In this document: positions 3,914 through 32,000 of the stretch, piece after piece
How the letters are laid out: each line of letters opens with the position of its first letter
Position numbering within the stretch: position 1 is the stretch's first letter
Origin: Breznakia blatticola
GTDB taxonomy: Bacteria; Bacillota_I; Bacilli_A; Erysipelotrichales; Erysipelotrichaceae
Direction: 5' to 3'
Assembly (NCBI RefSeq): GCF_004365815.1
Contig: NZ_SODD01000016.1
Coordinates: 1-32,000 of the forward strand
Length of the DNA stretch: 32,000 nt
The notes under the pieces: model-generated
What the model was told of the DNA's origin: nothing
Databases searched by the model: none
The model's input: the letters and a program-made list of their open reading frames with translations, nothing else
Translations under genes and position numbers: made by a program

Positions 3914-4987
3914 ATGAGTGCAATGACAGAACGTTTAGATGGAATGATCGATCGCTACAATGAACTTAGTGAATTGATGATGAGTCCTGAAGTGCTTGCT
4001 GATAATCGTCGTATGGCTAAACTTGGAAAAGAACAAGCTGCGATGACACAAGCTGTAGAGACTTACCAAGAATATAAAAAAGTCGTACAAGGAATTGAAG
4101 ATGCGACTGCTTTAATGGAAGAACATGATCCTGAAGTTAAAGAAATGGCAAAAATGGAATTAGATGAATTACAACCACGTAAACAAGAATTACTTGATCG
4201 TCTAGAAATTTTATTGATTCCAAAAGATCCTGCAGATCAAAATAATGCAATTATGGAAATTCGTGGAGCTGCTGGAGGAGATGAAGGAAATATCTTTGCT
4301 GGTGATTTATACCGCATGTATTCAAAATATGCAGAAAGCAAAGGTTGGAAAATGGAAGTACTTGAAGCGCAAGAAAGTGAAGCAGGTGGATTTACCCGTA
4401 TCGCTTTTATGGTGAAAGGTGCGGAAGTATATGGACACTTAAAGTTTGAAAGTGGAAGTCACAGGGTACAACGTGTACCAAAGACTGAAACACAAGGGCG
4501 TGTACATACATCAACTGCAACAGTACTAGTTGACCCAGAAATCGAAGAAGATGAAATTGATATTAATCCAAATGATTTGGAAATCGATACAATGCGAGCA
4601 AGTGGAGCCGGAGGACAACACGTCAATAAAACGGATTCCGCAGTTCGTATTACCCACATTCCAACAGGAATTACAGTAAAATGTCAAGATGGTCGTAGTC
4701 AACATGCGAACCGTGAAACTGCATTAACGCAAATTCGTTCAAAAGTATATAGCGAAATGAAACGTCGTGAAGAAGAAGAACGTCATGCAGAAAGAAAAAG
4801 TAAACTTGGTACGGGAGACCGTAGTGAGAAAATCCGTACATATAACTATCCACAAAACCGTGTAACTGATCACCGTATTGGTTTAACACTTCAACAATTG
4901 GATCGTATCATGGAAGGGAAATTGGATGATATTATCGTTGCCTTACTTGAACAAGATCAACAGGATAAACTTGCTGGTAACGCATAA
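3914..4987 (+). CDS. prfA: Peptide chain release factor 1
   Basis: 357 aa. GGQ motif (SGAGGQHVNKT) and RF1-type PxT tripeptide region (QRVPKTETQGRVHTS). Confidence 0.97.
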   Translation: MSAMTERLDGMIDRYNELSELMMSPEVLADNRRMAKLGKEQAAMTQAVETYQEYKKVVQGIEDATALMEEHDPEVKEMAKMELDELQPRKQELLDRLEILLIPKDPADQNNAIMEIRGAAGGDEGNIFAGDLYRMYSKYAESKGWKMEVLEAQESEAGGFTRIAFMVKGAEVYGHLKFESGSHRVQRVPKTETQGRVHTSTATVLVDPEIEEDEIDINPNDLEIDTMRASGAGGQHVNKTDSAVRITHIPTGITVKCQDGRSQHANRETALTQIRSKVYSEMKRREEEERHAERKSKLGTGDRSEKIRTYNYPQNRVTDHRIGLTLQQLDRIMEGKLDDIIVALLEQDQQDKLAGNA

Positions 4988-15898: not shown

Positions 15899-16035
15899 CA
15901 ATTATCAAGAGATGGGGTAGAGAGTTAGCTCGTTAGATCCCACGCCAACCTCACTATATGTGAAAGGTGGTACTGCTAACAACGATAAGAGAAGAATACT
16001 TGAAAAAGCAATGCCTTCTCGTGAGGCATTTTTTA
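15899..16035 (+). promoter_or_regulatory. SAM-I (S-box) riboswitch with terminator/antiterminator expression platform
   Basis: P1 UUAUCAAGAG ... GAUAAGAG. Core elements are also present (GGGGUAGAGAG, GCUCGUUAGAUCCC, GCCAACC, P3 hairpin UCAC/GUGA, AAGGUGG). GAGAAG (15989-15994) can pair with CUUCUC (16015-16020) as an antiterminator. The terminator is ATGCCT/AGGCAT plus T6. It lies upstream of metK. Confidence 0.8.
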
Positions 16036-17202: not shown

Positions 17203-17265
17203 AAATACAGGTATTTGCATATTCTCTTTAATTATTGGACAAAGTATATTATAATAGGTTGGAAT

Positions 17266-17480
17266 AAGCGATGAGAAAAAGAGTAAGTATGAAACGTTCT
17301 CTAGAGAGCAAATGGTTGGTGTAAATTTGCGAATGCGTCATAGTGAAGATGGTTTTTGAGCTTTCATATCGATATGTAGGTATGAACGTATGCGGCGTTA
17401 ACGCACTTAAGGTATGTATAAGCATACAAAATAAGGTGGTAACACGGTAGTCTCGTCCTTTGGGTGGGATTTTTTATTTT
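17266..17480 (+). promoter_or_regulatory. T-box leader, Met specifier
   Basis: Stem I has a GA/K-turn (GCGAUGAG), AGUA, and the distal AGAGAG...GGUUGGUG. The specifier loop is GAAG-AUG-G, with AUG at 17349-17351 followed by a purine. The T-box sequence AAUAAGGUGGUAACACGG lies at 17430-17447. A weak GU-rich terminator stem is followed by a T-run (17452-17480). Confidence 0.8.
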
Positions 17481-17493
17481 ATATGGAGGTAAC

Positions 17494-19413
17494 ATGGAAA
17501 AGAAAAAGTATTATCTAACAACCCCAATTTATTATCCAAGTGATAATTTTCATATTGGGCACTGTTATACAACAGTAATTGCAGATACATTAGCACGTTA
17601 TAAACGTGCCAAAGGTTTTGATGTATTCTTTTTAACAGGTACAGATGAACATGGACAAAAAATTGAAGAACGTGCAAAACTTGCTGGAACAGATCCAAAG
17701 AGTTTCGTGGATAAAATTGTCGCTAATGCGCAAGACTTATGGTCATCATTAGGAATTACATACGATAAGTTTATTCGTACAACAGATGAATATCATGTCA
17801 AAGCTGTTCAAAAGATGTTCCGTGATTTATATGAAAAAGGGGATATCTATAAAGGTGAGTATGAAGGTTGGTACTGTACACCAGATGAGTCATTTTGGAC
17901 AGATTCACAACTTGTCGATGGAAAATGTCCAGAGTGTGGACGTGAAGTAAAAAAAGTAAAAGAAGAATCGTATTTCTTACGCTTAAGTAATTATCAAAAA
18001 CAATTAGAAGAATACTTGGAAAGTCATCCGGAATTGATGCAACCAGAATCTCGTTATAAAGAAATGTTAAATAACTTCTTAAAACCAGGTCTTCAAGATT
18101 TATCGGTTTCAAGAACAAGTTTCAAATGGGGAATTCCTGTTGATTTTGATCCAGACCATGTAATCTATGTATGGATGGATGCACTTTCAAACTATATTAC
18201 AGCACTTGGATATAACAGTGATGATGATTCTTTGTTTCAAAAATACTGGCCAGCTGAACTGCACCTAGTTGGAAAAGAAATCTTTAGATTCCACACATTA
18301 ATTTGGCCAATTATGTTGATGGCACTTGATTTGCCATTACCAAAACAAGTGTATGGACATGGATGGCTAGTTGTTGATGGAGGAAAAATTTCTAAATCAT
18401 TAGGTAACTATAAAGATCCACGTGTATATATTAATGACTATGGCGTAGACGCTGTACGTTATTACTTGTTAAGTGAAGTACCATTTGGAAATGATGGAAA
18501 CTTCTCAGAAAAACTACTCGTGGAAAGAAGTAATTCAGATTTAGCCAATGTATTAGGAAATTTAGTAAACCGTACAGTAAGTATGACAAACAAATACTTT
18601 GGTGGAACTGTAACAAATACGAAAGTACATGAAACCGTAGATGAAGATTTAATTCGTACAGTAAATGAATTAAATGCAAAAGTAGAAGCGAAAATGGATA
18701 CATTACATGTGGATGCAGCGATTGCTGAAATCTTCAATGTATTAAAACGTACCAACCGTTATGTTGATGAAACAACACCTTGGGTGTTAGGAAAAGATGA
18801 AAGTAAACAAGATCGTCTACAAACTGTCTTATTTAACTTGCTTGAAGCAATACGTGTTTGTACAATCCAATTAGAAGCATTCATTCCAAAAAGTGCACAA
18901 GCGATTTTTGATCAACTACAAACAGATGCACGTACATTTGATACTGTTGCCTTTGGTAGTGTGGATAGCTACACGGTCGTAGAAAAACCTTCCATTCTAT
19001 TTGCGCGTATTGATGAAAAAGAATTAGAAGAAAAATGGGCAAAAGAAGCTGCTGCAGTTGAAGAAACTACAGAAGAAGTACAAGAAACAAAACCAGAAAT
19101 TACATTTGATGATTTCATGAAAACGGAAATGAAAGTTGGTTTAATCGAAGCGTGTGAAAAGCATCCAAAAGCAGATAAACTACTTGTTTCACAAATCAAC
19201 ATTGGAACGGAAACACGTCAAGTGGTGAGTGGAATTGCACCAGACTATACACCTGAAGATATGATTGGTAAAAAAGTTATCGTCGTGACAAACTTAAAAC
19301 CAGCAAAAATTCGTGGTGTGGAAAGCCAAGGTATGATTCTTGTTGGTGAAGATGCAAATGGAATTGAGGTCGTAAATCTTAAGAGTATGGAACCAGGAGC
19401 AACTGTTCGCTAA
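17494..19413 (+). CDS. metG: Methionine--tRNA ligase with C-terminal tRNA-binding domain
   Basis: The track start at 17464 lies inside the T-box terminator. ATG 17494 has a GGAGG SD. Motifs: HIGH (NFHIGH), KMSKS variant (KISKS), CPECG knuckle, and a C-terminal EMAP/Trbp111-like domain. Confidence 0.95.
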   Translation: MEKKKYYLTTPIYYPSDNFHIGHCYTTVIADTLARYKRAKGFDVFFLTGTDEHGQKIEERAKLAGTDPKSFVDKIVANAQDLWSSLGITYDKFIRTTDEYHVKAVQKMFRDLYEKGDIYKGEYEGWYCTPDESFWTDSQLVDGKCPECGREVKKVKEESYFLRLSNYQKQLEEYLESHPELMQPESRYKEMLNNFLKPGLQDLSVSRTSFKWGIPVDFDPDHVIYVWMDALSNYITALGYNSDDDSLFQKYWPAELHLVGKEIFRFHTLIWPIMLMALDLPLPKQVYGHGWLVVDGGKISKSLGNYKDPRVYINDYGVDAVRYYLLSEVPFGNDGNFSEKLLVERSNSDLANVLGNLVNRTVSMTNKYFGGTVTNTKVHETVDEDLIRTVNELNAKVEAKMDTLHVDAAIAEIFNVLKRTNRYVDETTPWVLGKDESKQDRLQTVLFNLLEAIRVCTIQLEAFIPKSAQAIFDQLQTDARTFDTVAFGSVDSYTVVEKPSILFARIDEKELEEKWAKEAAAVEETTEEVQETKPEITFDDFMKTEMKVGLIEACEKHPKADKLLVSQINIGTETRQVVSGIAPDYTPEDMIGKKVIVVTNLKPAKIRGVESQGMILVGEDANGIEVVNLKSMEPGATVR

Positions 19414-24791: not shown

Positions 24792-24803
24792 TTTTTAATG
24801 CTT

Positions 24804-24858
24804 CGGCATATAGGTTAATCTATTTATATTTATAGATTGACTTGTATGCCGTTTTTTT
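24804..24858 (+). terminator. Terminator of the tRNA cluster
   Basis: Long imperfect hairpin CGGCATATAGGTTAATCTAT ... ATAGATTGACTTGTATGCCG followed by T7. Confidence 0.55.
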
Positions 24859-24882
24859 GTTTTACCAGGAAGGAGTGATTCG

Positions 24883-25128
24883 GTGGAGGATAGACAATGC
24901 TTAAAAGACTTACATGGAATTATTATTCACAACGTTCGTTCTGAGCTTGAAAAAAAAGAAATGTCTTTGTATAAGCTTGCAAAAGATGCGAATATTGGAT
25001 ACTCAATACTGTGGAAAATGTTAGATCCTAAAAAGGACGCTACCTTCTCAGTTAAAACTCTGCATAGGGTTGCAAGTACACTGGATATGACGGTAGCAGA
25101 AATTACAAAGCAAAAACAAAATCAGTAA
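24883..25128 (+). CDS. XRE/Cro-like HTH protein
   Basis: 81 aa. GTG start with a GGAAGGAG SD. HTH: MSLYKLAKDANIGYSILWKML...VKTLHRVASTLDMTVAEI. Confidence 0.75.
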   Translation: MEDRQCLKDLHGIIIHNVRSELEKKEMSLYKLAKDANIGYSILWKMLDPKKDATFSVKTLHRVASTLDMTVAEITKQKQNQ

Positions 25129-25132
25129 GAGC

Positions 25133-25255
25133 AAAAAAAAACTAACTTCTATGTTTGGCGACGTTCAAGTTAGTTCAAGTATTTGCCTTCAAAAATTTTC
25201 TTCGCTATTTCCGGCACGTTTTTAGTGTACTCATAAAGCCACAAGGCCCCTGTAC
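25133..25255 (-). ncRNA. Candidate small RNA (alternatively the 3' part of a 57-aa SD-less ORF, 25170-25343)
   Basis: The minus strand carries TTGCGA (25285-25290), a 17-nt spacer, and TGgTATATT (-10 at 25262-25267). About 120 nt downstream is a 9-bp hairpin (25140-25148 / 25167-25175) followed by T9 on the minus strand. Confidence 0.3.
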
Positions 25256-25406
25256 GTCTATAATATACCATTTTAGAAAATAATTCGCAAGACATAGAAC
25301 AAGAAAAAAAGGCCTTATTTATAAAAATGAACATAAACAACATTTGGCATTGTTACTTTATCGAGAAAAATAACTGAAACATGTAAGTCCAATACATATA
25401 ACGGTA

Positions 25407-25919
25407 GGATTTCCTAATATCCTTACAATTATTAGGCTCTCCGAAAAATACGACCAAAGGTCGTTTATATAAACAAAAGAAAGGAAATTAAAATGAACAT
25501 ATTAATTACGATCGTACTACTAAGTACATTAGCTGCAGCAAGCTACTCAATCTACAATTATATTCTTGTTCGATGCAAATTGAATAATAGACGTTCCTAA
25601 AAAAGACACGTCTTGAACTACAGAAATATTTGGGATTGCCTAATAACCCATTGCCCATTCTATCCTTGAAACACACACTACACACATAGATATGATTACT
25701 TCATACTAATTAAAGCAAAGGCGTAACAATTATTAGGCATTATTGTGAAATGCGACCATGGTCGTTTAAATAAACGAAAAAAGTAAGAATAATACATGGG
25801 ATTGCCTAATAACCCAAAATTCTTCCACCTCACAAAAACATAGACATAAATAAGACAAACACAAAATATGAGGTACTAATTATTAGGTTCTGCTTTTGCA
25901 GAAGAAAGGAAATTATCTT
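25407..25919 (+). repeat. Three tandem copies of a composite module with four parts
   Basis: The four parts are an L box containing CCTAATA, a CA-rich spacer, an R box CAATTATTAGG, and a short hairpin leading into AGAAAGGAAATT RBS. CCTAATA occurs at 25413, 25639 and 25805. TATTAGG occurs at 25430, 25731 and 25881. L2 and L3 are the identical 18-mer GGGATTGCCTAATAACCC. The hairpins are CGACCAAAGGTCG (25451), CGACCATGGTCG (25753) and CTGCTTTTGCAG (25890). Confidence 0.7.
25493..25600 (+). CDS. 35-aa hydrophobic peptide with basic tail (type I toxin-like); not in the ORF track
   Basis: MNILITIVLLSTLAAASYSIYNYILVRCKLNNRRS. AGAAAGGA SD 7 nt upstream. It sits behind module 1 of the repeat. Confidence 0.4.
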   Translation: MNILITIVLLSTLAAASYSIYNYILVRCKLNNRRS

Positions 25920-26147
25920 ATGAAAAAATTAATGGTAGGAATGGGAGAAGTAATGATGTTAGTACTAATGATCATTAATATGTCTTTAAATGAAGCATAC
26001 CTTCCACTTGCTTATTTAGGTTCATTACTAGTTCCAGTAGCGTGTTTATTAGTAAACATTCTTCGCGAACTAAGAAATACAAATGAAAAGCTAGATGCAA
26101 TTCATACTGAACAAATTACTGATAGAGTTTGCGGTGATAAAGAATGA
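25920..26147 (+). CDS. Small two-TM membrane protein with charged C-terminal tail
   Basis: 75 aa from ATG 25920 (AGAAAGGAAATT SD shared with the 25493 ORF; the track start TTG 25896 is unlikely). Hydrophobic segments GEVMMLVLMIINMSL and LAYLGSLLVPVACLLVNIL. Confidence 0.55.
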   Translation: MKKLMVGMGEVMMLVLMIINMSLNEAYLPLAYLGSLLVPVACLLVNILRELRNTNEKLDAIHTEQITDRVCGDKE

Positions 26148-27136
26148 ATTTGAGTGAAGTTGGAAAGCTTGACGAAATAATAGTGACGCATTTTTTACTA
26201 TTCATCGTTTTTCTTTATCTGTCGCTGGTGTATTACTTTGAGATGCACGAGAAAATTAAAAAAGACAAGAAAAGTAAAAAGTACTTACTTAGTAGTGGTT
26301 ACTTTTTAGCATTACGTTTGTTCAGTGGTTTGAACTTGCTATTTGGAATAGTAGGAATATTTATATCACGATTGATTTTAGATGGTCGTTTGCGTGTGGA
26401 ACCTATATATAGTTTCTTTACATTTGGAAGGAATGAAGAAATTCTATCCAATATATATATCATTCAGGCAATGTTTATGATAGTAACGCTTATTTATACT
26501 GAACATCCAAAATTGAGAAAAATGAGAACAGCAATTTTGATATTTATTATTGCCACGGTATGTACTGCAGGAGTGATATATGGGATGGAGCAAATTGTGA
26601 AAGAGAACACAGAAATAAAGTCAGCAAAAAGAACAGAAGTTCAGATAACAGTTCTTGATGAAAATGGAAACACTGACAAGGATTTGAAGGTAAATTGCTT
26701 GTTGTTATCTTGTGATGAAGTCGATGAAAAATACTTTGAAGAACTACACTTAACTTTTAATGAAGATGCAATGGAAATCGAACCCAATACAACTGGTTTC
26801 ATATTTGAAAAAGTAAATTCGGACAAAGAATATTCCAATAATCTGTACTTGAACGAATCAGTAAAAAATAATGCATATAAAGTGATTCAATTATCTGCAT
26901 ATGCTGCATTGAATGGTGAAAAGTTCAACTACACTGTAAAGAGAACGTGTAAGGATCCAGTAAATAATAAATATATTACAAAAGGTGATACTGAATGGTT
27001 GTTGATCAAAAAGAATCTCTACGAACTTTCCCAAGCGGGGACTGTTTTTGAGATTAAACATAAAACATTGACTTTAGAAGTAATGCAGCTATATGAAAGT
27101 ATCGAAAGTAACTTTGATAACTTAAAAGTAGAATAG
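26144..27136 (+). CDS. Polytopic membrane protein with C-terminal soluble domain of about 180 aa, function unknown
   Basis: 330 aa. ATGA overlap with the upstream gene. At least four hydrophobic segments in the first 150 aa. No recognisable motif. Confidence 0.65.
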   Translation: MNLSEVGKLDEIIVTHFLLFIVFLYLSLVYYFEMHEKIKKDKKSKKYLLSSGYFLALRLFSGLNLLFGIVGIFISRLILDGRLRVEPIYSFFTFGRNEEILSNIYIIQAMFMIVTLIYTEHPKLRKMRTAILIFIIATVCTAGVIYGMEQIVKENTEIKSAKRTEVQITVLDENGNTDKDLKVNCLLLSCDEVDEKYFEELHLTFNEDAMEIEPNTTGFIFEKVNSDKEYSNNLYLNESVKNNAYKVIQLSAYAALNGEKFNYTVKRTCKDPVNNKYITKGDTEWLLIKKNLYELSQAGTVFEIKHKTLTLEVMQLYESIESNFDNLKVE

Positions 27137-27165
27137 AATATGGATTAACATGGAGGAACTAAAAG

Positions 27166-27399
27166 ATGAATTTGAGTGAGTTTTTAGAGTTTATTAAAAA
27201 TGAACAGCAAATAGAAGTTTGTTGGCTAAATGAAAAAGGTGGATACTCAGGAGATCAAATTATTGGCTTATGTAAAGAAGTTAGGACAAGAATACCTAAT
27301 CATATTGCAGGAAAGAGAGTAGACGAATGTTTCCTGTTGCTTAAATGTGCATATGATGGTCACTTAATTATTGCAGAGAGAATGAGGTATAAGAAATGA
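27166..27399 (+). CDS. Hypothetical 77-aa protein
   Basis: GGAGGAA SD. Its first 14 nt (ATGAATTTGAGTGA) are identical to the start of the 26144 gene. Confidence 0.55.
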   Translation: MNLSEFLEFIKNEQQIEVCWLNEKGGYSGDQIIGLCKEVRTRIPNHIAGKRVDECFLLLKCAYDGHLIIAERMRYKK

Positions 27400-27629
27400 A
27401 TGAAAAACAAAAGCAAACGTTCGTTGATGGAGTTATTACTGCATGTGGGATTATAGCAAGAAGAAATTTGTATACATGTTCTTGTGATAGTGATATTAAA
27501 GAAATTTTGCAAGGTGCTGCATTTACTGGAGAACAGTGGAATTCATCAAATTGCAAACAGGAGAAGGAAGATATATTACTGGCAATGAATGAAGAAGAAC
27601 TTAGCGAAGTGTTAAAAACATGGGATTGA
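27396..27629 (+). CDS. Hypothetical 77-aa protein
   Basis: ATGA overlap with the upstream gene. Contains Cys residues including a CSC triplet, and an acidic C-terminus. Confidence 0.55.
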   Translation: MNEKQKQTFVDGVITACGIIARRNLYTCSCDSDIKEILQGAAFTGEQWNSSNCKQEKEDILLAMNEEELSEVLKTWD

Positions 27630-27632
27630 TAA

Positions 27633-27658
27633 ATAAAAAAAACAAGGTGGTTACCTTG
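27633..27658 (-). terminator. Intrinsic terminator oriented for the minus strand
   Basis: The minus strand reads CAAGGT-AACC-ACCTTG followed by T8. On the plus strand the hairpin is preceded by A8 and has no T-run after it. Confidence 0.45.
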
Positions 27659-27707
27659 CTCAATTGTGTTTAATGGACTTAAGACGTTTGAAAAGGAGGT
27701 GTCAGTC

Positions 27708-27914
27708 ATGTTTGAAGTAATTGCAATTATTATAATGCTTTTCATGACATTTGTGGCGCTATCACCAATATTGATATTGTTTGGAGTCTTATTTGAAAAT
27801 ATGTTTAGAGAACTTGACTCAATCGTATGCAAGACAATCTTAAGTGCTATTTTTATTCTCGTCATTATTATAGTTTGCTCATTACCTGTTATTTATTTTA
27901 TGCAAAACAAGTAA
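27708..27914 (+). CDS. Small two-TM membrane protein
   Basis: 68 aa from ATG 27708 (AAAGGAGG SD; the track start is 27666). Hydrophobic segments VIAIIIMLFMTFVALSPILILFGVLF and ILSAIFILVIIIVCSLPVIYF. Confidence 0.5.
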   Translation: MFEVIAIIIMLFMTFVALSPILILFGVLFENMFRELDSIVCKTILSAIFILVIIIVCSLPVIYFMQNK

Positions 27915-28005
27915 TGACGATTACTGCTTCTTAGTTTTGAAGCATCTATATTCACTCTCAATAAGTTTAGTAGATTTTATATATTTAGAAGGGAAAGATA
28001 ACATT

Positions 28006-28428
28006 ATGACTTTAATACAATTATTTAAACGTTTAAAGAAGGACCAGCAATCCGAGTCTCAAATTTTTGAATTAGAGAAGACAGTTACTTTTTTAGAACC
28101 AATAAACTATGAATTGTTTACTCAGAAAGACTTAAGATTTGTTCTAAGAGCTTATCTAGAGTCAAGAAACAATGGAGAACGATATAAAACCATTAAAACT
28201 AATGATTTGCTTTGTACTCTTAAATTAATGCATCTAAACAAAATAAAGAAGGAGTATATGATAGAAGACTCTAGTGGAATACGAAAAAAAAGAAGACAGA
28301 TTCTTGTTAAAGAAATTCGTCAACTTTTTGAGGAAGATGCATTTGATGCATGGTTCACAGTTATAGGAACTTTCGAATCACGGCAATCAATGAGGGAATG
28401 GCTTGACCAAGGTCAACAATCTTTGTAG
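28006..28428 (+). CDS. Hypothetical protein (140 aa)
   Basis: ATG 28006 has a GAAGGGAAAG SD; the track start is 27937. Basic, probably helical. The 3' end overlaps the convergent gene by 68 nt. Confidence 0.5.
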   Translation: MTLIQLFKRLKKDQQSESQIFELEKTVTFLEPINYELFTQKDLRFVLRAYLESRNNGERYKTIKTNDLLCTLKLMHLNKIKKEYMIEDSSGIRKKRRQILVKEIRQLFEEDAFDAWFTVIGTFESRQSMREWLDQGQQSL

Positions 28429-29047
28429 TGATATCAATAAAATCTTTCGCACTTTTCTTAGATATTTTGCTTTTATTGTTTAGCGTATCTATAACCTCTA
28501 ACAAAAACTCGCGGTCAGTATCATCTATTCCAGAATGATTTTCAACTATTGATCTTTCACTGGAGAAGTCTCCAGCTATGTTCGAATTAACTTCAACACC
28601 TTGCGAATTTTTAATAAATACACCAGTGAAGTTTCCGAAGTTATCGCCCGATGACTTAGAATTATCTTCACGATATGGTTCAAAGTAGTATAGTTTTACT
28701 CTTTTGTGATTAAAAAGTTTACCAGGGTGTAGATCAAGTGTCTGTACACTAGTTATTTCAATAGGATAGCTATATGTCTTTAAGTTAATAATCTTACCTA
28801 ATTCATACCTATCTTTCATTATTTGAAGTTTGTGCTTTTCGTAAGTACTATATTCGACTGAGAAATAATCTTTATATGGCGTATACGTTATTCCTGATTT
28901 ATAAGGTTTGAGGTTATCCAATTTTGATAGAACAATATACTTGAGGACCTGATAACCAAGATATCCAAGAACAAAAATTATAACTAGGATAATTCCTGGA
29001 ATAACTAAGTTATCGATTAATGGTTGTGTGTTACTTGAGTTGTTCAT
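28361..29047 (-). CDS. N-terminally TM-anchored protein, function unknown
   Basis: 228 aa. GGAGG SD on the minus strand (29055-29059). Single helix IPGIILVIIFVLGYLGYQVL, then a Tyr/Lys-rich domain. Divergent from an XRE gene. Confidence 0.6.
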   Translation of the reverse strand: MNNSSNTQPLIDNLVIPGIILVIIFVLGYLGYQVLKYIVLSKLDNLKPYKSGITYTPYKDYFSVEYSTYEKHKLQIMKDRYELGKIINLKTYSYPIEITSVQTLDLHPGKLFNHKRVKLYYFEPYREDNSKSSGDNFGNFTGVFIKNSQGVEVNSNIAGDFSSERSIVENHSGIDDTDREFLLEVIDTLNNKSKISKKSAKDFIDITTKIVDLGQAIPSLIAVIRKFL

Positions 29048-29129
29048 ATCTATACCTCCATAAAATACCTACAATATATCGGCGGTAACGCCTATTTGTC
29101 ATTATATCAAATATAGAAAGGAATTCAAA

Positions 29130-29357
29130 ATGTATATAAACAACAACTTTAAATACTTATTACAAAATAACAATACGAATACGTTTCGCTTATCAAAAGA
29201 AGTAAATATTGATGAATCAACTCTTAGACGAATAAGAAATGGACAAGTAAATAATCCTTCAATTGAGACAGTGGTCATGATCTGCAGCTATTTCAAAGTT
29301 TCATTGGATGATTTCGTCCATATGGATTTAAGTCAGGACAAACATCGTCAACAGTGA
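29130..29357 (+). CDS. XRE/Cro-like HTH protein
   Basis: 75 aa. HTH: FRLSKEVNIDESTLRRIRNGQVNNPSIETVVMICSYFKVSLDDF. Confidence 0.75.
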   Translation: MYINNNFKYLLQNNNTNTFRLSKEVNIDESTLRRIRNGQVNNPSIETVVMICSYFKVSLDDFVHMDLSQDKHRQQ

Positions 29358-29605
29358 TTAGTAATATGCTGTGAGTCAAATCGGGAATTAAAAAGAAGGG
29401 GAGACACCCAGTCGATTGTATTGAGAGCCTCTGACAGATCAACAAAGATATAACACATCATGCAGGAGTCGATACATGGACAGATTATGACGTTTAGGAA
29501 TATTACTTATGATAAATAATTTTTCATTTTTCAAGGGGAAAAAAGCACTACGTGTAACGGCGGTGCGTATTTATACGGCATGTGCCGTAGAAGGGATGTT
29601 AATTA

Positions 29606-30784
29606 ATGAATACATTGAATTATAGTTACTTATTGGAATCAGCATTAACAAACAAGAAATACTCACAATTGGATTTATTTAAATCGTTAGATGTGATTAG
29701 TGATGGAAAAAAATCTAATGTTTATTTGAGATGTGAACCTATACATGAGGAGTCATTTGATGGATATTTTGAAGATAAGACAGAAAATTCATTCTTTATA
29801 TACAAGTTTAATGGTGGATTACTCACTTTTAAGAACCAATATAAAGAGTTTATTGATAACTATAAACAAAAGAATAAGAAAGCAGTTTATGCAACACAAC
29901 TGAAAATGCTTTATCCAAGATCGATGAAAACTGTGAAAGAACGAAAGCAATTCATCTATGAATTCATGCACAATATAGTGAATTCAAATACAAAGGAAAT
30001 TAATGATAAAGGGAAGTTAGTTAATAAAACTACACATGTGCCATATGTTGTAGAAAATATTGAAAATGAATATGCGCAAACAACATACGCTTTGATAACA
30101 GTGATAGATCGAGTGTATTTAGGTAATTATAAGCATAAACGATATCGACAAACACAATACATTGATAGTCGAACAAAGAAGTTTGCTAAGGATACTTGCC
30201 CAGAAGAATATAAAGAGCTTTCGTATAAAGCCGGAGACTTCATGTTAGACAAAAAAGGTAGAAAGATAAAGAATGATGTGTTATTTGGAAAGCGTGAAAG
30301 ATTCTTTGCTTACCCCAAAAATGGATGGCTTAATTTCATCAATCGATTAAAGCGATGTGTAATAGCTGCATTCTGGAAACTTCGTAGTAACGGTTTTACT
30401 GAAGGTAAAGTATTACGTAAAAGTCAAAACTTGCGTCATTATCCAAAAGTCATAAGAAGAAGAATCGGTGCAATAAATCATGCAAAAATAATAGTTCAAT
30501 ACACAATTAACTATTTGTTGAAGTGGGAATACGAAATGAACTTGGTTAGAAAGGATAAAGACTGGAAGTTGGAGAAATTGAATAGTACAGTTGCCTACCA
30601 GCAATTAGAAAAGATATTTGAACATTATAAAGCTAGATTTAAAAATCAATACTTCCATGATAAAGACGGAAAGAAAAGGTATATTCAGTATTACAAACAA
30701 CGAGTAAATGACTTAGAGAACAATATTGAGATCCTGATCAGAATGTTCTTTGAAGAAATTGAGAATGTGCAACTTACGTTATAA
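29606..30784 (+). CDS. Large basic ORFan (392 aa), function unknown
   Basis: GAAGGGA SD. Lys/Arg/Tyr-rich. I see no HUH, YxDD, Walker or CxxC motifs. Preceded by about 250 nt of non-coding sequence. Confidence 0.65.
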   Translation: MNTLNYSYLLESALTNKKYSQLDLFKSLDVISDGKKSNVYLRCEPIHEESFDGYFEDKTENSFFIYKFNGGLLTFKNQYKEFIDNYKQKNKKAVYATQLKMLYPRSMKTVKERKQFIYEFMHNIVNSNTKEINDKGKLVNKTTHVPYVVENIENEYAQTTYALITVIDRVYLGNYKHKRYRQTQYIDSRTKKFAKDTCPEEYKELSYKAGDFMLDKKGRKIKNDVLFGKRERFFAYPKNGWLNFINRLKRCVIAAFWKLRSNGFTEGKVLRKSQNLRHYPKVIRRRIGAINHAKIIVQYTINYLLKWEYEMNLVRKDKDWKLEKLNSTVAYQQLEKIFEHYKARFKNQYFHDKDGKKRYIQYYKQRVNDLENNIEILIRMFFEEIENVQLTL

Positions 30785-30796
30785 AGGAGAAAAGTT

Positions 30797-31228
30797 ATGG
30801 ATTTATTTCAAGAGATTAATACGTTTACGATCACTATATTAATTGTAGCTGTTATATGTATTGGAGTTATTATTTTTGCTAATTCTGTAAAGGTAAAGTC
30901 ATATATGAACAACAAAAAAAGCATACTGCATGAAATTAATCGAATTATCTCAAATCATGAGGTTGTTGAAGCGCATGTAGGGATTGAAGAGATAACCAAA
31001 GTAAGTAAAAGAAGAGTTATAAGGAAACGCAATTTGTATGTTACTTTCAAAAACTCCCAGACGCAGCAGGTATTTAAAAAGATTTTTTCATTAAATGGAA
31101 TAAAAGTTAATTATATTGACGGTCTTGGTCGCTTTTTAGATGTTGATATCGAGAATGAAGTTATTGTATTACATGCAAAAGCAATTGCAACTCATGATCG
31201 TATTGTGGATAGACGAATTCACAGATAA
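30797..31228 (+). CDS. N-terminally TM-anchored hypothetical protein
   Basis: 143 aa. AAAGGAGAAAAG SD. Helix FTITILIVAVICIGVIIFA. Confidence 0.6.
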   Translation: MDLFQEINTFTITILIVAVICIGVIIFANSVKVKSYMNNKKSILHEINRIISNHEVVEAHVGIEEITKVSKRRVIRKRNLYVTFKNSQTQQVFKKIFSLNGIKVNYIDGLGRFLDVDIENEVIVLHAKAIATHDRIVDRRIHR

Positions 31229-31236
31229 GAAAGGGT

Positions 31237-31665
31237 GTGTTTATATGCCAAAGTCATAAAGCATCAAGAACAATAATTCATCTTGGTGATCACGATCCTT
31301 CAGGAATTGATATGACGAGAGATATCCAGGAGCGTCTTAACCTATTCGAAGCAGATGTAAATGTAAAACGAGTAGCTTTAACGAAAAGACAAATCACTAA
31401 ATATGGGCCACCACCAAACCCTGCTAAACTTACGGATTCACGCGTTGATAAATACATCGATAAATATGGAACTAGTAGTTGGGAACTTGATGCATTAGAA
31501 CCACAGGTGATTGAAGACATTATTAAACAAGAAGTAAACAAGCTTGTAGATAAGTCTCTTCTTAAAGAGGTCGAAATGAAAGAAAACAACGACAAAGAGA
31601 TCTTATTGAAGATTGAAAACAATTATGATCAAGTAAAACATTTTATAGAGAGTGAACAATTATGA
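31237..31665 (+). CDS. Toprim-like (DxDxxG motif) protein; start uncertain, possibly frameshifted
   Basis: IIHLGDHDPSGIDM lies about 17 aa from the GTG start of the track. WELDAL lies about 75 aa downstream of that motif. The only good SD (GAAAGGG) serves ATG 31245, which is +1 out of frame and gives MPKS*. Confidence 0.45.
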   Translation: MFICQSHKASRTIIHLGDHDPSGIDMTRDIQERLNLFEADVNVKRVALTKRQITKYGPPPNPAKLTDSRVDKYIDKYGTSSWELDALEPQVIEDIIKQEVNKLVDKSLLKEVEMKENNDKEILLKIENNYDQVKHFIESEQL

Positions 31666-31784
31666 AAAAACGTATAACAAAGATGAATAAGCAAAAGATT
31701 GTTGTGATTGTAAAATCGGTCTTGGTCATTTTATTGATTCTTGGGTATCTGCTAGTCAAGTACCTGGAAGAGAGACCATTTTAG
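31662..31784 (+). CDS. Small membrane peptide (40 aa); not in the ORF track
   Basis: ATGA overlap with the upstream stop. MKKRITKMNKQKIVVIVKSVLVILLILGYLLVKYLEERPF. Confidence 0.35.
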   Translation: MKKRITKMNKQKIVVIVKSVLVILLILGYLLVKYLEERPF

Positions 31785-31799
31785 AGAGGGGGAATAGAA

Positions 31800-32000
31800 G
31801 TGATAGCAATTGGATTCACTCTTACTTTACTGATATTAGTAATTGTTGAATATGTTACTCGCTATGATAAATGTCTAGCTCATTGTCATCGATTGAATAA
31901 AGATCAATTGGCAAAGCTTAATCTGATAAAGATTGATGAATATCATGATAGAACAACTCGCGTCTATGTATATCAGTTCAAGGATGTAGAGTTTGTTGTA
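31800..32000 (+). CDS. Partial ORF (runs off the window), N-terminal TM helix
   Basis: GTG 31800 with a GAGGGGG SD 7 nt upstream. (M)IAIGFTLTLLILVIVEYV... is open to the window end. Confidence 0.35.
   Translation, partial: MIAIGFTLTLLILVIVEYVTRYDKCLAHCHRLNKDQLAKLNLIKIDEYHDRTTRVYVYQFKDVEFVV

Follow-up and report, generated by a model that had tools for sequence, protein, structure and literature searches.

Coremin-type Xrn1-resistant RNAs (xrRNAs) combine a first hairpin (hp1), a spacer that forms a pseudoknot and an obligatory second hairpin (hp2), and occur in Picornavirales after the stop codon of an open reading frame (ORF) or in intergenic regions, also in tandem (PMC10520033, PMC10321173). 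Coremin motifs are in addition known to block scanning ribosomes (PMC10520033), and flaviviral xrRNAs stop the bacterial RNase J1 by their fold alone (PMC5760640). Here, we describe an RNA unit of comparable layout in the bacterium Breznakia blatticola, in a stretch of 32,000 nucleotides (nt) of contig NZ_SODD01000016.1 that is hereafter called the window. In the 25407-25919 region of the window, one structured RNA unit occurs three times in tandem on the plus (sense) strand, two of the copies being partly rearranged; a further bacterial copy was found in Breznakia pachnodae, and units of the same kind were found in RNA viruses.

The coremin class, comprising xrRNA-C and its Watson-Crick variant (PMC6546385, PMC10520033, PMC10321173), is the closest described system. 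The likeness extends to a short hp1 whose loop interacts with a spacer (ca. 10 nt in coremin RNAs), to an obligatory hp2 that is kept only as structure, a layout which the Breznakia unit reproduces, and to a location ca. 8 nt past an ORF stop or in intergenic regions, in tandem, in Picornavirales that include marnaviruses. Unlike coremin RNAs, which are not known from bacteria, the present unit displays no match to GUCCGAAGACGUUAAACUAC and has a 5-bp stem, an 8-nt loop and a canonical pseudoknot of 6-7 bp, and loop position 2, a fixed G in coremin, is here G, U or A and covaries. The xrRNAs of flaviviruses and plant viruses are likewise pseudoknot-dependent and protein-free, often occur in tandem just past a stop codon and stop RNase J1 (PMC5760640), but they adopt larger three-way-junction or ring folds encircling the 5' end, of which none is evident here.

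The array and its bacterial and viral counterparts

The heptamer CCTAATA is found at 25413, 25639 and 25805 on the plus strand and at 25430, 25731 and 25881 on the minus strand, with strictly alternating orientation. An earlier note, made from the sequence alone, had reported these three alternating copies of each heptamer, which is correct, and none elsewhere in the window, which is not: a sole copy outside the array lies at 18551 on the minus strand. Altogether, CCTAATA/TATTAGG occurs in 7 copies in the window for 3.9 expected, and 6 of the 7 fall within 475 bp (25413-25887). The heptamers are the cores of larger conserved boxes, designated L (18 nt) and R (ca. 13 nt; 25425-25438, 25726-25739 and 25876-25889). 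L2 and L3 (25632-25649 and 25798-25815) are the same 18-mer, GGGATTGCCTAATAACCC, from which L1 (AGGATTTCCTAATATCCT, 25406-25423) departs at 4 positions; R1 and R2 have ACAATTATTAGGC in common and R3 corresponds to CTAATTATTAGGT. A conserved GC-rich hairpin comes after R1 and R2 (ACGACCaaaGGTCGT at 25450-25464 and GCGACCatGGTCGT at 25752-25765), followed in both cases by GTTTAnATAAAC. Modules 1 and 3 end in a common Shine-Dalgarno (SD) context, AGAAAGGAAATTA, located before two small hydrophobic ORFs, ORF35 (25493-25600) and ORF75 (25920-26147), while module 2 is a copy without ORF in which R2, hp2 and tail are present. The modular anatomy drawn in the earlier note, including the identity of L2 and L3 and the sequence common to R1 and R2, was thus confirmed when checked against the sequence.

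Position-weight scanning of the rest of the window, the following 4.4 kb and the 8-kb B. pachnodae locus detected no other comparable L/R site, and a further copy was found neither at the other gene junctions nor anywhere else in the 36 kb covered for B. blatticola. Across 185,579 species, each represented by one genome, a degenerate L pattern had 87 single hits, and in just one of these, in B. pachnodae, does TATTAGG lie downstream. The module occurs as a single copy in that genome and lies on the minus strand of the locus, where GGGATTGCCTAATATCCC starts 6 nt past the stop codon of a 115-amino-acid (aa) ORF (ORF115) and is followed by a 45-nt spacer, ATAATTATTAGGT, ca. 60 nt, an SD and a 27-aa hydrophobic ORF (ORF27). 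The islands of the two species display no protein similarity and their only DNA match is one of 39 nt around the L box. All four bacterial L boxes fit an hp1 of 5 bp (RGGAU/AUCCY) with an 8-nt loop, UNYCUAAU, and each of the four modules contains AATTATTAGG. Between L and R, modules 2, 3 and that of B. pachnodae resemble one another no more than shuffled sequence does, whereas the boxes are identical or nearly so. Since the boxes were kept between spacers that cannot be aligned, both L and R are under constraint, and since they stand out as islands of identity, the repeat exceeds what chance or recent neutral duplication would give.

Because the bacterial scans preceded knowledge of the viral variants described below (GUCUAAU..AUUAGAU and others), the distribution may exceed two species. 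A metagenome scan with the L..R pattern gave chance matches only. One match that recurred in human-gut metagenomes and phages was rejected as a chance event, for it lies inside a conserved 92-aa ORF (…WGLPNKP…); it illustrates that the L 18-mer can be coding. Separately, a metagenome-assembled genome of an uncultured Bacteroidetes has, on the minus strand of contig L035 (956-1046), GGGGATTGCCTAATAACCCC followed after 3 nt by ATTATGATTTAGGT; with 17.8 bits under the covariance model that includes the pseudoknot (see below), this may be either a diverged unit or a chance match.

Viral counterparts were retrieved from IMG/VR, in which a search for GGATTKCCTAATAWCC gave 47 hits that were filtered for a downstream R core. 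This left two contigs, L149 and L154, with CATGGGATTGCCTAATATCCC followed after 4-5 nt by (T/C)AATTATTAGGT. Their L box matches that of B. pachnodae at 18/18 positions and the R box of L149 matches at 13/13, for an estimated chance co-occurrence of L and R of ~0.01 among 45 background hits. Protein- and pattern-guided scans brought the set to about 20 viral contigs, at 80-98% identity and beyond; searched for the exact 18-mer and for R plus hairpin, viral contigs gave 0 matches, and DNA-phage matches to GGGATTNNCTAATANCCC were discarded as the R box was missing.

L149 is an RNA virus whose 1035-aa ORF contains 3C-protease and RNA-dependent RNA polymerase motifs. Its relatives have RdRP_1, RNA helicase and picornavirus-type capsid domains, and among solved structures their capsid best matches 6shl and 8b38, which we take to be diatom marnaviruses, and then cricket paralysis virus. 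By their predicted products, the contigs carrying the unit are marnavirus-like dicistronic positive-sense single-stranded RNA viruses, with the unit at the start of the intergenic region. It begins 9 nt past the ORF1 stop in 9 of the 11 contigs with a locatable stop, and 8 and 16 nt past it in the others. The order of the viral unit is hp1 (the L box, GGGAU-UKYCUAAU-AUCCC), a 4-nt linker, the R box AAUUAUUAGRN, 9 nt, a 4-bp hp2 and the tail CUAGAUGUAAAU. In three contigs (L172 at 4009-4151, L173 and L175) the 71-nt unit is tandemly duplicated, a duplication which is absent from close relatives and which mirrors the bacterial tandem array. The viral intergenic region has no match in Rfam with E values up to 1, and no description of a marnavirus-like pseudoknot-hairpin unit was found in Rfam 15 or in the literature searched. 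As a separate observation, a covarying 6-bp hairpin (L149 3096-3119, at the same place in L171-L197) carries the viral ORF1 stop codon in its loop, with the stem variants CUUGAA..UUCAAG, CUUGAC..GUCAAG and CUCGAG..CUCGAG.

The pseudoknot and the probable kinship of the units

In 11 distinct viral units, 100% of the cells of the helix between the L loop and the R box are paired and two pairs change on both sides (G.U / A-U / U-A for one and U-A / C-G / U.G for the other), with a covariation score above those of all 500 shuffles and of all slid controls. When 13 viral units are aligned with bacterial unit 1, 95.8% of cells are paired and three pairs covary. The covarying closing pair of hp1 is G-C in 11 units and A-U in 3, namely bacterial unit 1 and two viral units; the other bacterial units have G-C. 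These compensatory changes prove both helices and so establish, on comparative sequence grounds, that the unit is an H-type pseudoknot with a stem 1 of 5 bp, a stem 2 of 6-7 bp, a first loop of 1 nt and a linker that ends in AAUU. The second small hairpin is conserved in position and not in sequence, with CGACC/GGUCG in bacterial units 1 and 2 versus CGCU/AGCG in the viral ones.

On the bacterial side, pairing of the L loop with the downstream box AAUUAUUAG(R)(N), over 6-7 bp, accounts for 83% of cells in the four modules, and the positions that vary are those that vary in the viruses: the closing pair, loop position 2 and an A.A or A.C mismatch at the fourth stem pair. Folding of the region with RNAfold, one of the checks named in the earlier note, predicts both the L:R helix and hp2 in units 1-3. 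That note had also inferred pairing of the R boxes with L boxes; this stands as far as pairing in the sense RNA is concerned, and is backed by the viral covariation, except that the partner of an L box is its own downstream R rather than an R pairing with the following L.

The relationship was further assessed with a covariance model built from viruses only, in which the pseudoknot helix is treated as base pairs, and a search space of 690 kb that includes 86 decoy loci preselected for an L-like 18-mer. The two top-ranking matches are unit 1, at 23.5 bits (E 0.006), and after it the B. pachnodae unit, at 22.1 bits. An earlier model without pseudoknot pairs, which this one replaced, recovered all four bacterial units. 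The viral unit and its bacterial counterparts resemble each other in hp1 (GGGAUUGCCUAAUAUCCC, identical to that of B. pachnodae), in the partner box AAUUAUUAGG(U), in the order hp1, partner, hp2 and tail, which is kept in compact form in unit 1, in their variable positions and in tandem duplication. They differ in that the former resides in RNA genomes, 9 nt past the ORF1 stop, and the latter are encoded in DNA, in 5' leaders or between small ORFs.

Several points weigh against this structure and kinship. Only one of the four bacterial units is compact; in the others an insert places the pseudoknot partner 45-76 nt from hp1, and these may fold differently from the viral units. Taken alone, the bacterial modules show no significant L:R covariation, with invariant pairs and one change from G-C to G.U, and a single, non-significant compensatory pair in the L stem, so that the covariation which the earlier note had proposed as a check is found among the viral units and not among the bacterial ones. 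The hp2 of B. pachnodae is a weak 4-bp candidate seen by eye only. Lastly, under the model without pseudoknot pairs, a few L-like sites that occur by chance within long ORFs reach the scores of real units, and this test alone is weak since it does not separate the decoys. All considered, we regard it as very probable that the array structure and its kinship with the viral unit are real; whether the relationship reflects transfer or convergence we cannot say.

The inserts themselves bear on the history of the array. Between hp1 and the partner box there are 4 nt in unit 1, 76 in unit 2, 62 in unit 3 and 45 in B. pachnodae, and alignment to the virus model places a decayed copy of the viral hp2 loop and tail within the inserts of units 2 and 3, which look as if two tandem units had fused. 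Tandem copies would have arisen by duplication and deletion, with remnants of a former hp2 and tail left in the 62-76-nt inserts. Such decay raises the question of whether the array is a functionless relic, a short virus-like piece acquired horizontally, duplicated and now decaying in fast-evolving ORFan islands. The unit is known from only two bacterial genomes in the species-representative and metagenome scans, units 2 and 3 are rearranged, and no viral-like sequence was found elsewhere in the bacterial islands, all of which would fit this view. A relic is nonetheless improbable in our opinion, as the boxes are perfectly kept in two species and three paralogues in surroundings that have diverged beyond alignment, their orientation towards the downstream SD and ORF is retained, and the positions that do vary are those that vary with compensation in the viruses.

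The same data bear on explanations at the DNA level, namely an operator array for an XRE-type regulator or recombination sites of inverton, shufflon or attC type. The strict alternation of the boxes, the dyad symmetry of the L box and a 12-bp palindrome (GTTTAnnTAAAC) after hp2 would suit DNA sites; moreover an XRE gene lies 300 bp upstream and ORFan genes flank the modules in the manner of integron cassettes. The occurrence of the unit in RNA genomes, with covariation of RNA type that includes G.U pairs, makes such sites highly improbable. As for the variants put forward in the earlier note, an XRE operator array is contradicted by the presence of the unit in RNA viruses and by a scan of the 10 ORFs nearest to the module of B. 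pachnodae (ca. 3.7 kb), which revealed no helix-turn-helix (HTH) domain; the XRE protein itself is without relatives. Miniature inverted-repeat transposable elements do not agree with a single further copy in 185,579 species and none in 36 kb of B. blatticola. Inverton-like repeats are at odds with L-R distances of 10-85 bp, those of 10-50 bp being too short to invert, with the lack of a recombinase domain in 11.5 kb and with the identity of two assemblies. Two related candidates were also rejected: an attC-like integron, for which AAC/GTT triplets, an array and an integrase are missing, and GTTTAnnTAAAC as a repeated operator, of which the island holds no further copies.

The three units, the small ORFs and the island

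All features of the array are on the plus strand. In unit 1, hp1 (L box, AGGAU-UUCCUAAU-AUCCU, 25406..25423) has a 5-bp stem and an 8-nt loop, and the R box ACAAUUAUUAGGCU (25425..25438) pairs through AUUAGG with the loop segment CCUAAU to form the H-type pseudoknot, its AAUU being the conserved end of the linker. The following hp2 (ACGACC-aaa-GGUCGU, 25450..25464) corresponds in position to that of the viruses (CGCU-7 nt-AGCG) and is terminator-like on the minus strand. It is followed by the tail GUUUAUAUAAAC (25463..25474), a palindromic 12-mer resembling the viral tail CUAUAUGUAAAU, and by the SD AGAAAGGAAAUU (25479-25490) that precedes ORF35 (MNILITIVLLSTLAAASYSIYNYILVRCKLNNRRS, 25493-25600), whose product is hydrophobic with a basic C-terminus and for which no family or relative was found. 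In unit 2, hp1 (L box GGGAUUGCCUAAUAACCC, 25632..25649) has an A.A stem mismatch as in viral unit v194, and the 76-nt insert contains a decayed tail-like segment, AUAGAUAUGAUUACU (25686..25700), placed by alignment of the model without pseudoknot pairs to the viral tail and common to unit 3. The R box ACAAUUAUUAGGCA (25726..25739) is a perfect 10-bp complement of L2, and likewise of L3; hp2 (GCGACC-au-GGUCGU) with the tail GUUUAAAUAAAC occupies 25752..25775 and no ORF comes after it. In unit 3, hp1 (25798..25815) has the same L box as unit 2, and the 62-nt insert has a decayed tail-like segment, AUAGACAUAAAUAAG (25840..25854, from the same model alignment), preceded by CUUCC...CCUCA, which on reading resembles the viral hp2 loop. 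Its R box CUAAUUAUUAGGUU (25876..25889) pairs with L3 via G.U, as in B. pachnodae and viral units, and an hp2-like hairpin of another sequence (UUCUGC-uuuu-GCAGAA, 25888..25903) occupies the equivalent position. The SD GAAAGGAAAUU and ORF75 (EDD63_11632, 25920-26147) span 25904..26147; ORF75 encodes a small membrane protein without relatives and is the first gene of an ORFan operon.

Two candidate promoters were noted on the same strand. One, of sigma-70 type, was recognised by consensus match (TTGGCA-16-AAAAAT, 25344..25371, ca. 35 nt upstream of unit 1), and the other (TTTAAA-17-AATAAT, 25765..25793) would place the start of transcription near L3; its AATAAT is also conserved ahead of the L box of B. 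pachnodae. Attempts to read the L and R boxes themselves as sigma-70 promoters were discarded because they are mutually inconsistent. Also rejected was an upstream ORF starting from the (A/T)TG before L (MGLPN..), as the SD is absent in most copies, unit 1 has no start codon and the changes are non-synonymous; the TG before L is better explained as an extension of the stem.

The small ORFs recall hok/sok and aapA1/IsoA1 (PMC9841398, PMC5416894), as the locus likewise combines a small hydrophobic ORF with complementary boxes outside the coding sequence and may also have an antisense RNA. In those systems the mRNA is closed 5'-to-3' with sequestration of the SD, which is not kept here, where the boxes pair locally upstream of a free SD. 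The earlier note had envisaged precisely such a closure, each R box pairing with the next L around the small ORF, which would make the modules leaders of type I toxins with antisense antitoxins. ORF35 and ORF27 do resemble Gram-positive type I toxins, at 27-35 aa, hydrophobic, with a charged C-terminus and in a mobile-element-like island, traits that agree with published generic criteria for such peptides in mobile or prophage-like regions (PMC6563280). R1:L2 is the strongest duplex between boxes (-16.6 kcal/mol), with a probability of 0.99 if the RNA ends just past L2; there is a perfect antisense TATAAT inside ORF35 and the hp2 of unit 1 reads as a minus-strand terminator, both being consensus matches only; and B. 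pachnodae has an antisense promoter inside ORF27, a convergent small RNA candidate and a 10-nt inverted repeat on either side of ORF27.

For each L box, however, the partner that is conserved and covaries is the R box of its own unit, 4-5 nt apart in the viruses and in module 1, and the proposed closure thereby lacks support. Further, no L box is found downstream of ORF27, and the 10-nt inverted repeat is not significant (p about 0.13). For R1:L2 to close, the transcript would have to end after L2 and before R2, a stretch in which no terminator was seen, and once R2 is included L1:R1 and L2:R2 are predicted instead. Predicted folds leave the SD unpaired, the viruses carry the unit without any such small ORF, no match to hok, Fst or another toxin family was obtained, with neither Hok nor Mok homology, and there is no overlapping mok-like frame. 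Searches of Pfam, PHROGs and NCBIfam with ORF35, ORF75 and ORF27 gave nothing. Leaders that work by hok-like closure therefore seem hardly likely, but the toxin-like features of ORF35 and ORF27 together with the antisense promoter and terminator matches make a toxin-antitoxin role possible alongside the RNA unit.

The convergent small RNA candidate of B. pachnodae (L034 4687-4772, plus strand) is ca. 50 nt long and ends at the ORF27 stop codon; it has a promoter TTTACA-17-TAATAT with TG, two hairpins, a U-tail terminator and a fold z of -4.3, and its initial 10 nt recur unchanged in the ORF27 leader. In the window, a candidate small RNA at 25131-25290 on the minus strand, between the XRE gene and unit 1, has no ORF to serve; its promoter is of the extended -10 type (TTGCGA-17-TG-TATATT, 25290..25262), a 10-bp stem with U9 behind it lies at 25175-25131, and the fold z is ca. 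0. It was rejected as an antitoxin (25255-25131), having no special complementarity to the modules.

The array is located in a low-GC ORFan island that starts after a tRNA cluster and its terminator. The island spans 24858-32000 of the window and 7144-11517 of contig L123, and consists almost entirely of ORFans, with two XRE-type HTH genes, one of them the gene upstream of the array, and a ParA/ParB-like pair beyond the window end. No integrase, relaxase or Rep was recognised in its 11.5 kb, and BLAST searches of the island against phages and plasmids gave no match. No relatives of the 330-aa (EDD63_11633), 75-aa and XRE proteins turned up among 5.8 billion proteins, and none of ORF35 among 1.84 billion representatives, which is why protein-guided retrieval of homologous islands found none. 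Rfam, at gathering thresholds and with E values up to 10, detected nothing relevant in 24800-26300.

At the island border, a 48-nt hairpin with 20-bp arms followed by T7 (24804-24851) immediately follows tRNA-Leu(taa), with 30 nt between it and the start codon of the XRE gene. A break in the Logan assembly of SRR8436184 falls within this hairpin, with contigs ending at 24805 and starting at 24858; compared at the level of assemblies, the NCBI and Logan sequences show no difference over 7,143 nt. Elsewhere in the window, ordinary housekeeping leaders were noted, a SAM riboswitch before a metK-like gene (15899-15991) and a T-box leader before a methionyl-tRNA-synthetase-like gene (17262-17463).

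Proposed function of the unit

That one unit is kept in a eukaryote-type RNA virus and in a bacterium means that it must depend on an intrinsic property of the RNA or on universal machinery. Gram-positive 5' mRNA stabilisers such as the ermC and aprE leader stem-loops and the cryIIIA STAB-SD are leaders that shield the message from 5'-to-3' decay by RNase J1. They are simple 5'-terminal hairpins or bound ribosomes, not pseudoknot-hairpin units, and are not shared with viruses. Given the match in layout to coremin-type xrRNAs and the arrest of RNase J1 by a fold, we propose that the unit is a mechanical roadblock of the xrRNA kind, a reading that is favoured here only tentatively and in which the unit would work like an xrRNA without being filed as a member of that family. 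The fold alone, without protein, would halt a 5'-to-3' exoribonuclease at the 5' edge of hp1, this enzyme being RNase J in the Gram-positive lineage and Xrn1 for the viruses, and ribosomes would possibly stall there too. This would stabilise and insulate the RNA located 3' of the roadblock, which in Breznakia comprises the ORF35 message together with the ORF75 operon and in the viruses the part of the genome with the internal ribosome entry site and capsid. That ORF35 and ORF27 might be type I toxins in need of a long-lived mRNA is a separate proposition.

Other observations speak against a roadblock. A simple H-type pseudoknot, for instance of frameshift type, does not by itself stop Xrn1 (PMC10321173), and the unit departs in sequence from coremin: neither the coremin hp1 (GUC-YGAD-GAC or longer YG..AD loops) nor its spacer GUUAAACUAC, after the consensus in PMC10520033, was found, there being no GUCC..GAC stem, a loop that is not YGAD-like at the covarying position and a different spacer. 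In addition, the near-fixed distance of 9 nt from the viral stop could mean a ribosomal function linked to termination.

This last point makes a ribosome-directed function the main rival. The pseudoknot would sit at the mRNA entry channel of the terminating ribosome, causing a pause, insulation of cistrons or retention and re-initiation, and in bacteria would tune the translation of small ORFs and not the decay of RNA. A spacing of ca. 9 nt is typical of recoding pseudoknots. Besides the near-constant viral distance and the viral stop codon lying within a covarying hairpin loop, this explanation can draw on the B. pachnodae L box, 6 nt past the ORF115 stop, and on the ribosome-blocking activity of coremin motifs cited above. 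We nevertheless consider it unlikely: an in-frame UAA inside the L loop would render readthrough pointless, units 1 and 3 follow no ORF, unit 2 lies 31 nt past the ORF35 stop, and the SDs of ORF35 and ORF75 are free in predicted folds.

The compact H-type fold, with unpaired nucleotides (U6 and the AAUU linker) that are invariant across viruses and bacteria, and the position of the units in 5' leaders of small membrane proteins, might also indicate an RNA that binds a ligand or factor, either an aptamer of the preQ1-I/SAM-II class or an unrecognised ribozyme, the invariant loop and linker binding a ubiquitous molecule or a universal protein. With preQ1-I and SAM-II riboswitches and with frameshift and readthrough pseudoknots, the unit has in common its fold class, a 5-bp stem 1, a stem 2 between loop and 3' tail and an A/U-rich linker, and with recoding pseudoknots the spacing from the viral stop. 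It differs from them in having no Rfam match, in not including the SD and in the loop stop codon that bars productive readthrough. Since the Rfam searches of the window and of the viral intergenic region returned no match, the SD lies outside the pseudoknot, the insert varies from 4 to 76 nt and, to our knowledge, riboswitches do not occur in such RNA viruses, we give little credence to ligand binding.

Returning to the roadblock reading, its boldest form would be that the Breznakia islands carry a working xrRNA directed at RNase J, of a type employed by RNA viruses that infect eukaryotes, and that a module of ca. 70 nt has moved horizontally between RNA viruses and bacterial DNA, much as s2m does from one virus family to another. 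We know of no bacterial precedent for such an element and view this form as possible but doubtful. If RNase J were indeed blocked, the unit would be the first natural bacterial element of xrRNA type and a compact, protein-independent stabiliser of mRNA in Gram-positive cells, which could serve as a synthetic-biology part. It would also define a new sequence class of viral pseudoknot-hairpin element, absent from Rfam, and a rare structured RNA module common to eukaryotic RNA viruses and bacterial chromosomes, which raises the testable question of transfer across replicon type and domain versus convergence on one fold. Even with another function, the pseudoknot, proven by covariation, would provide a concrete model for experiments in both systems.

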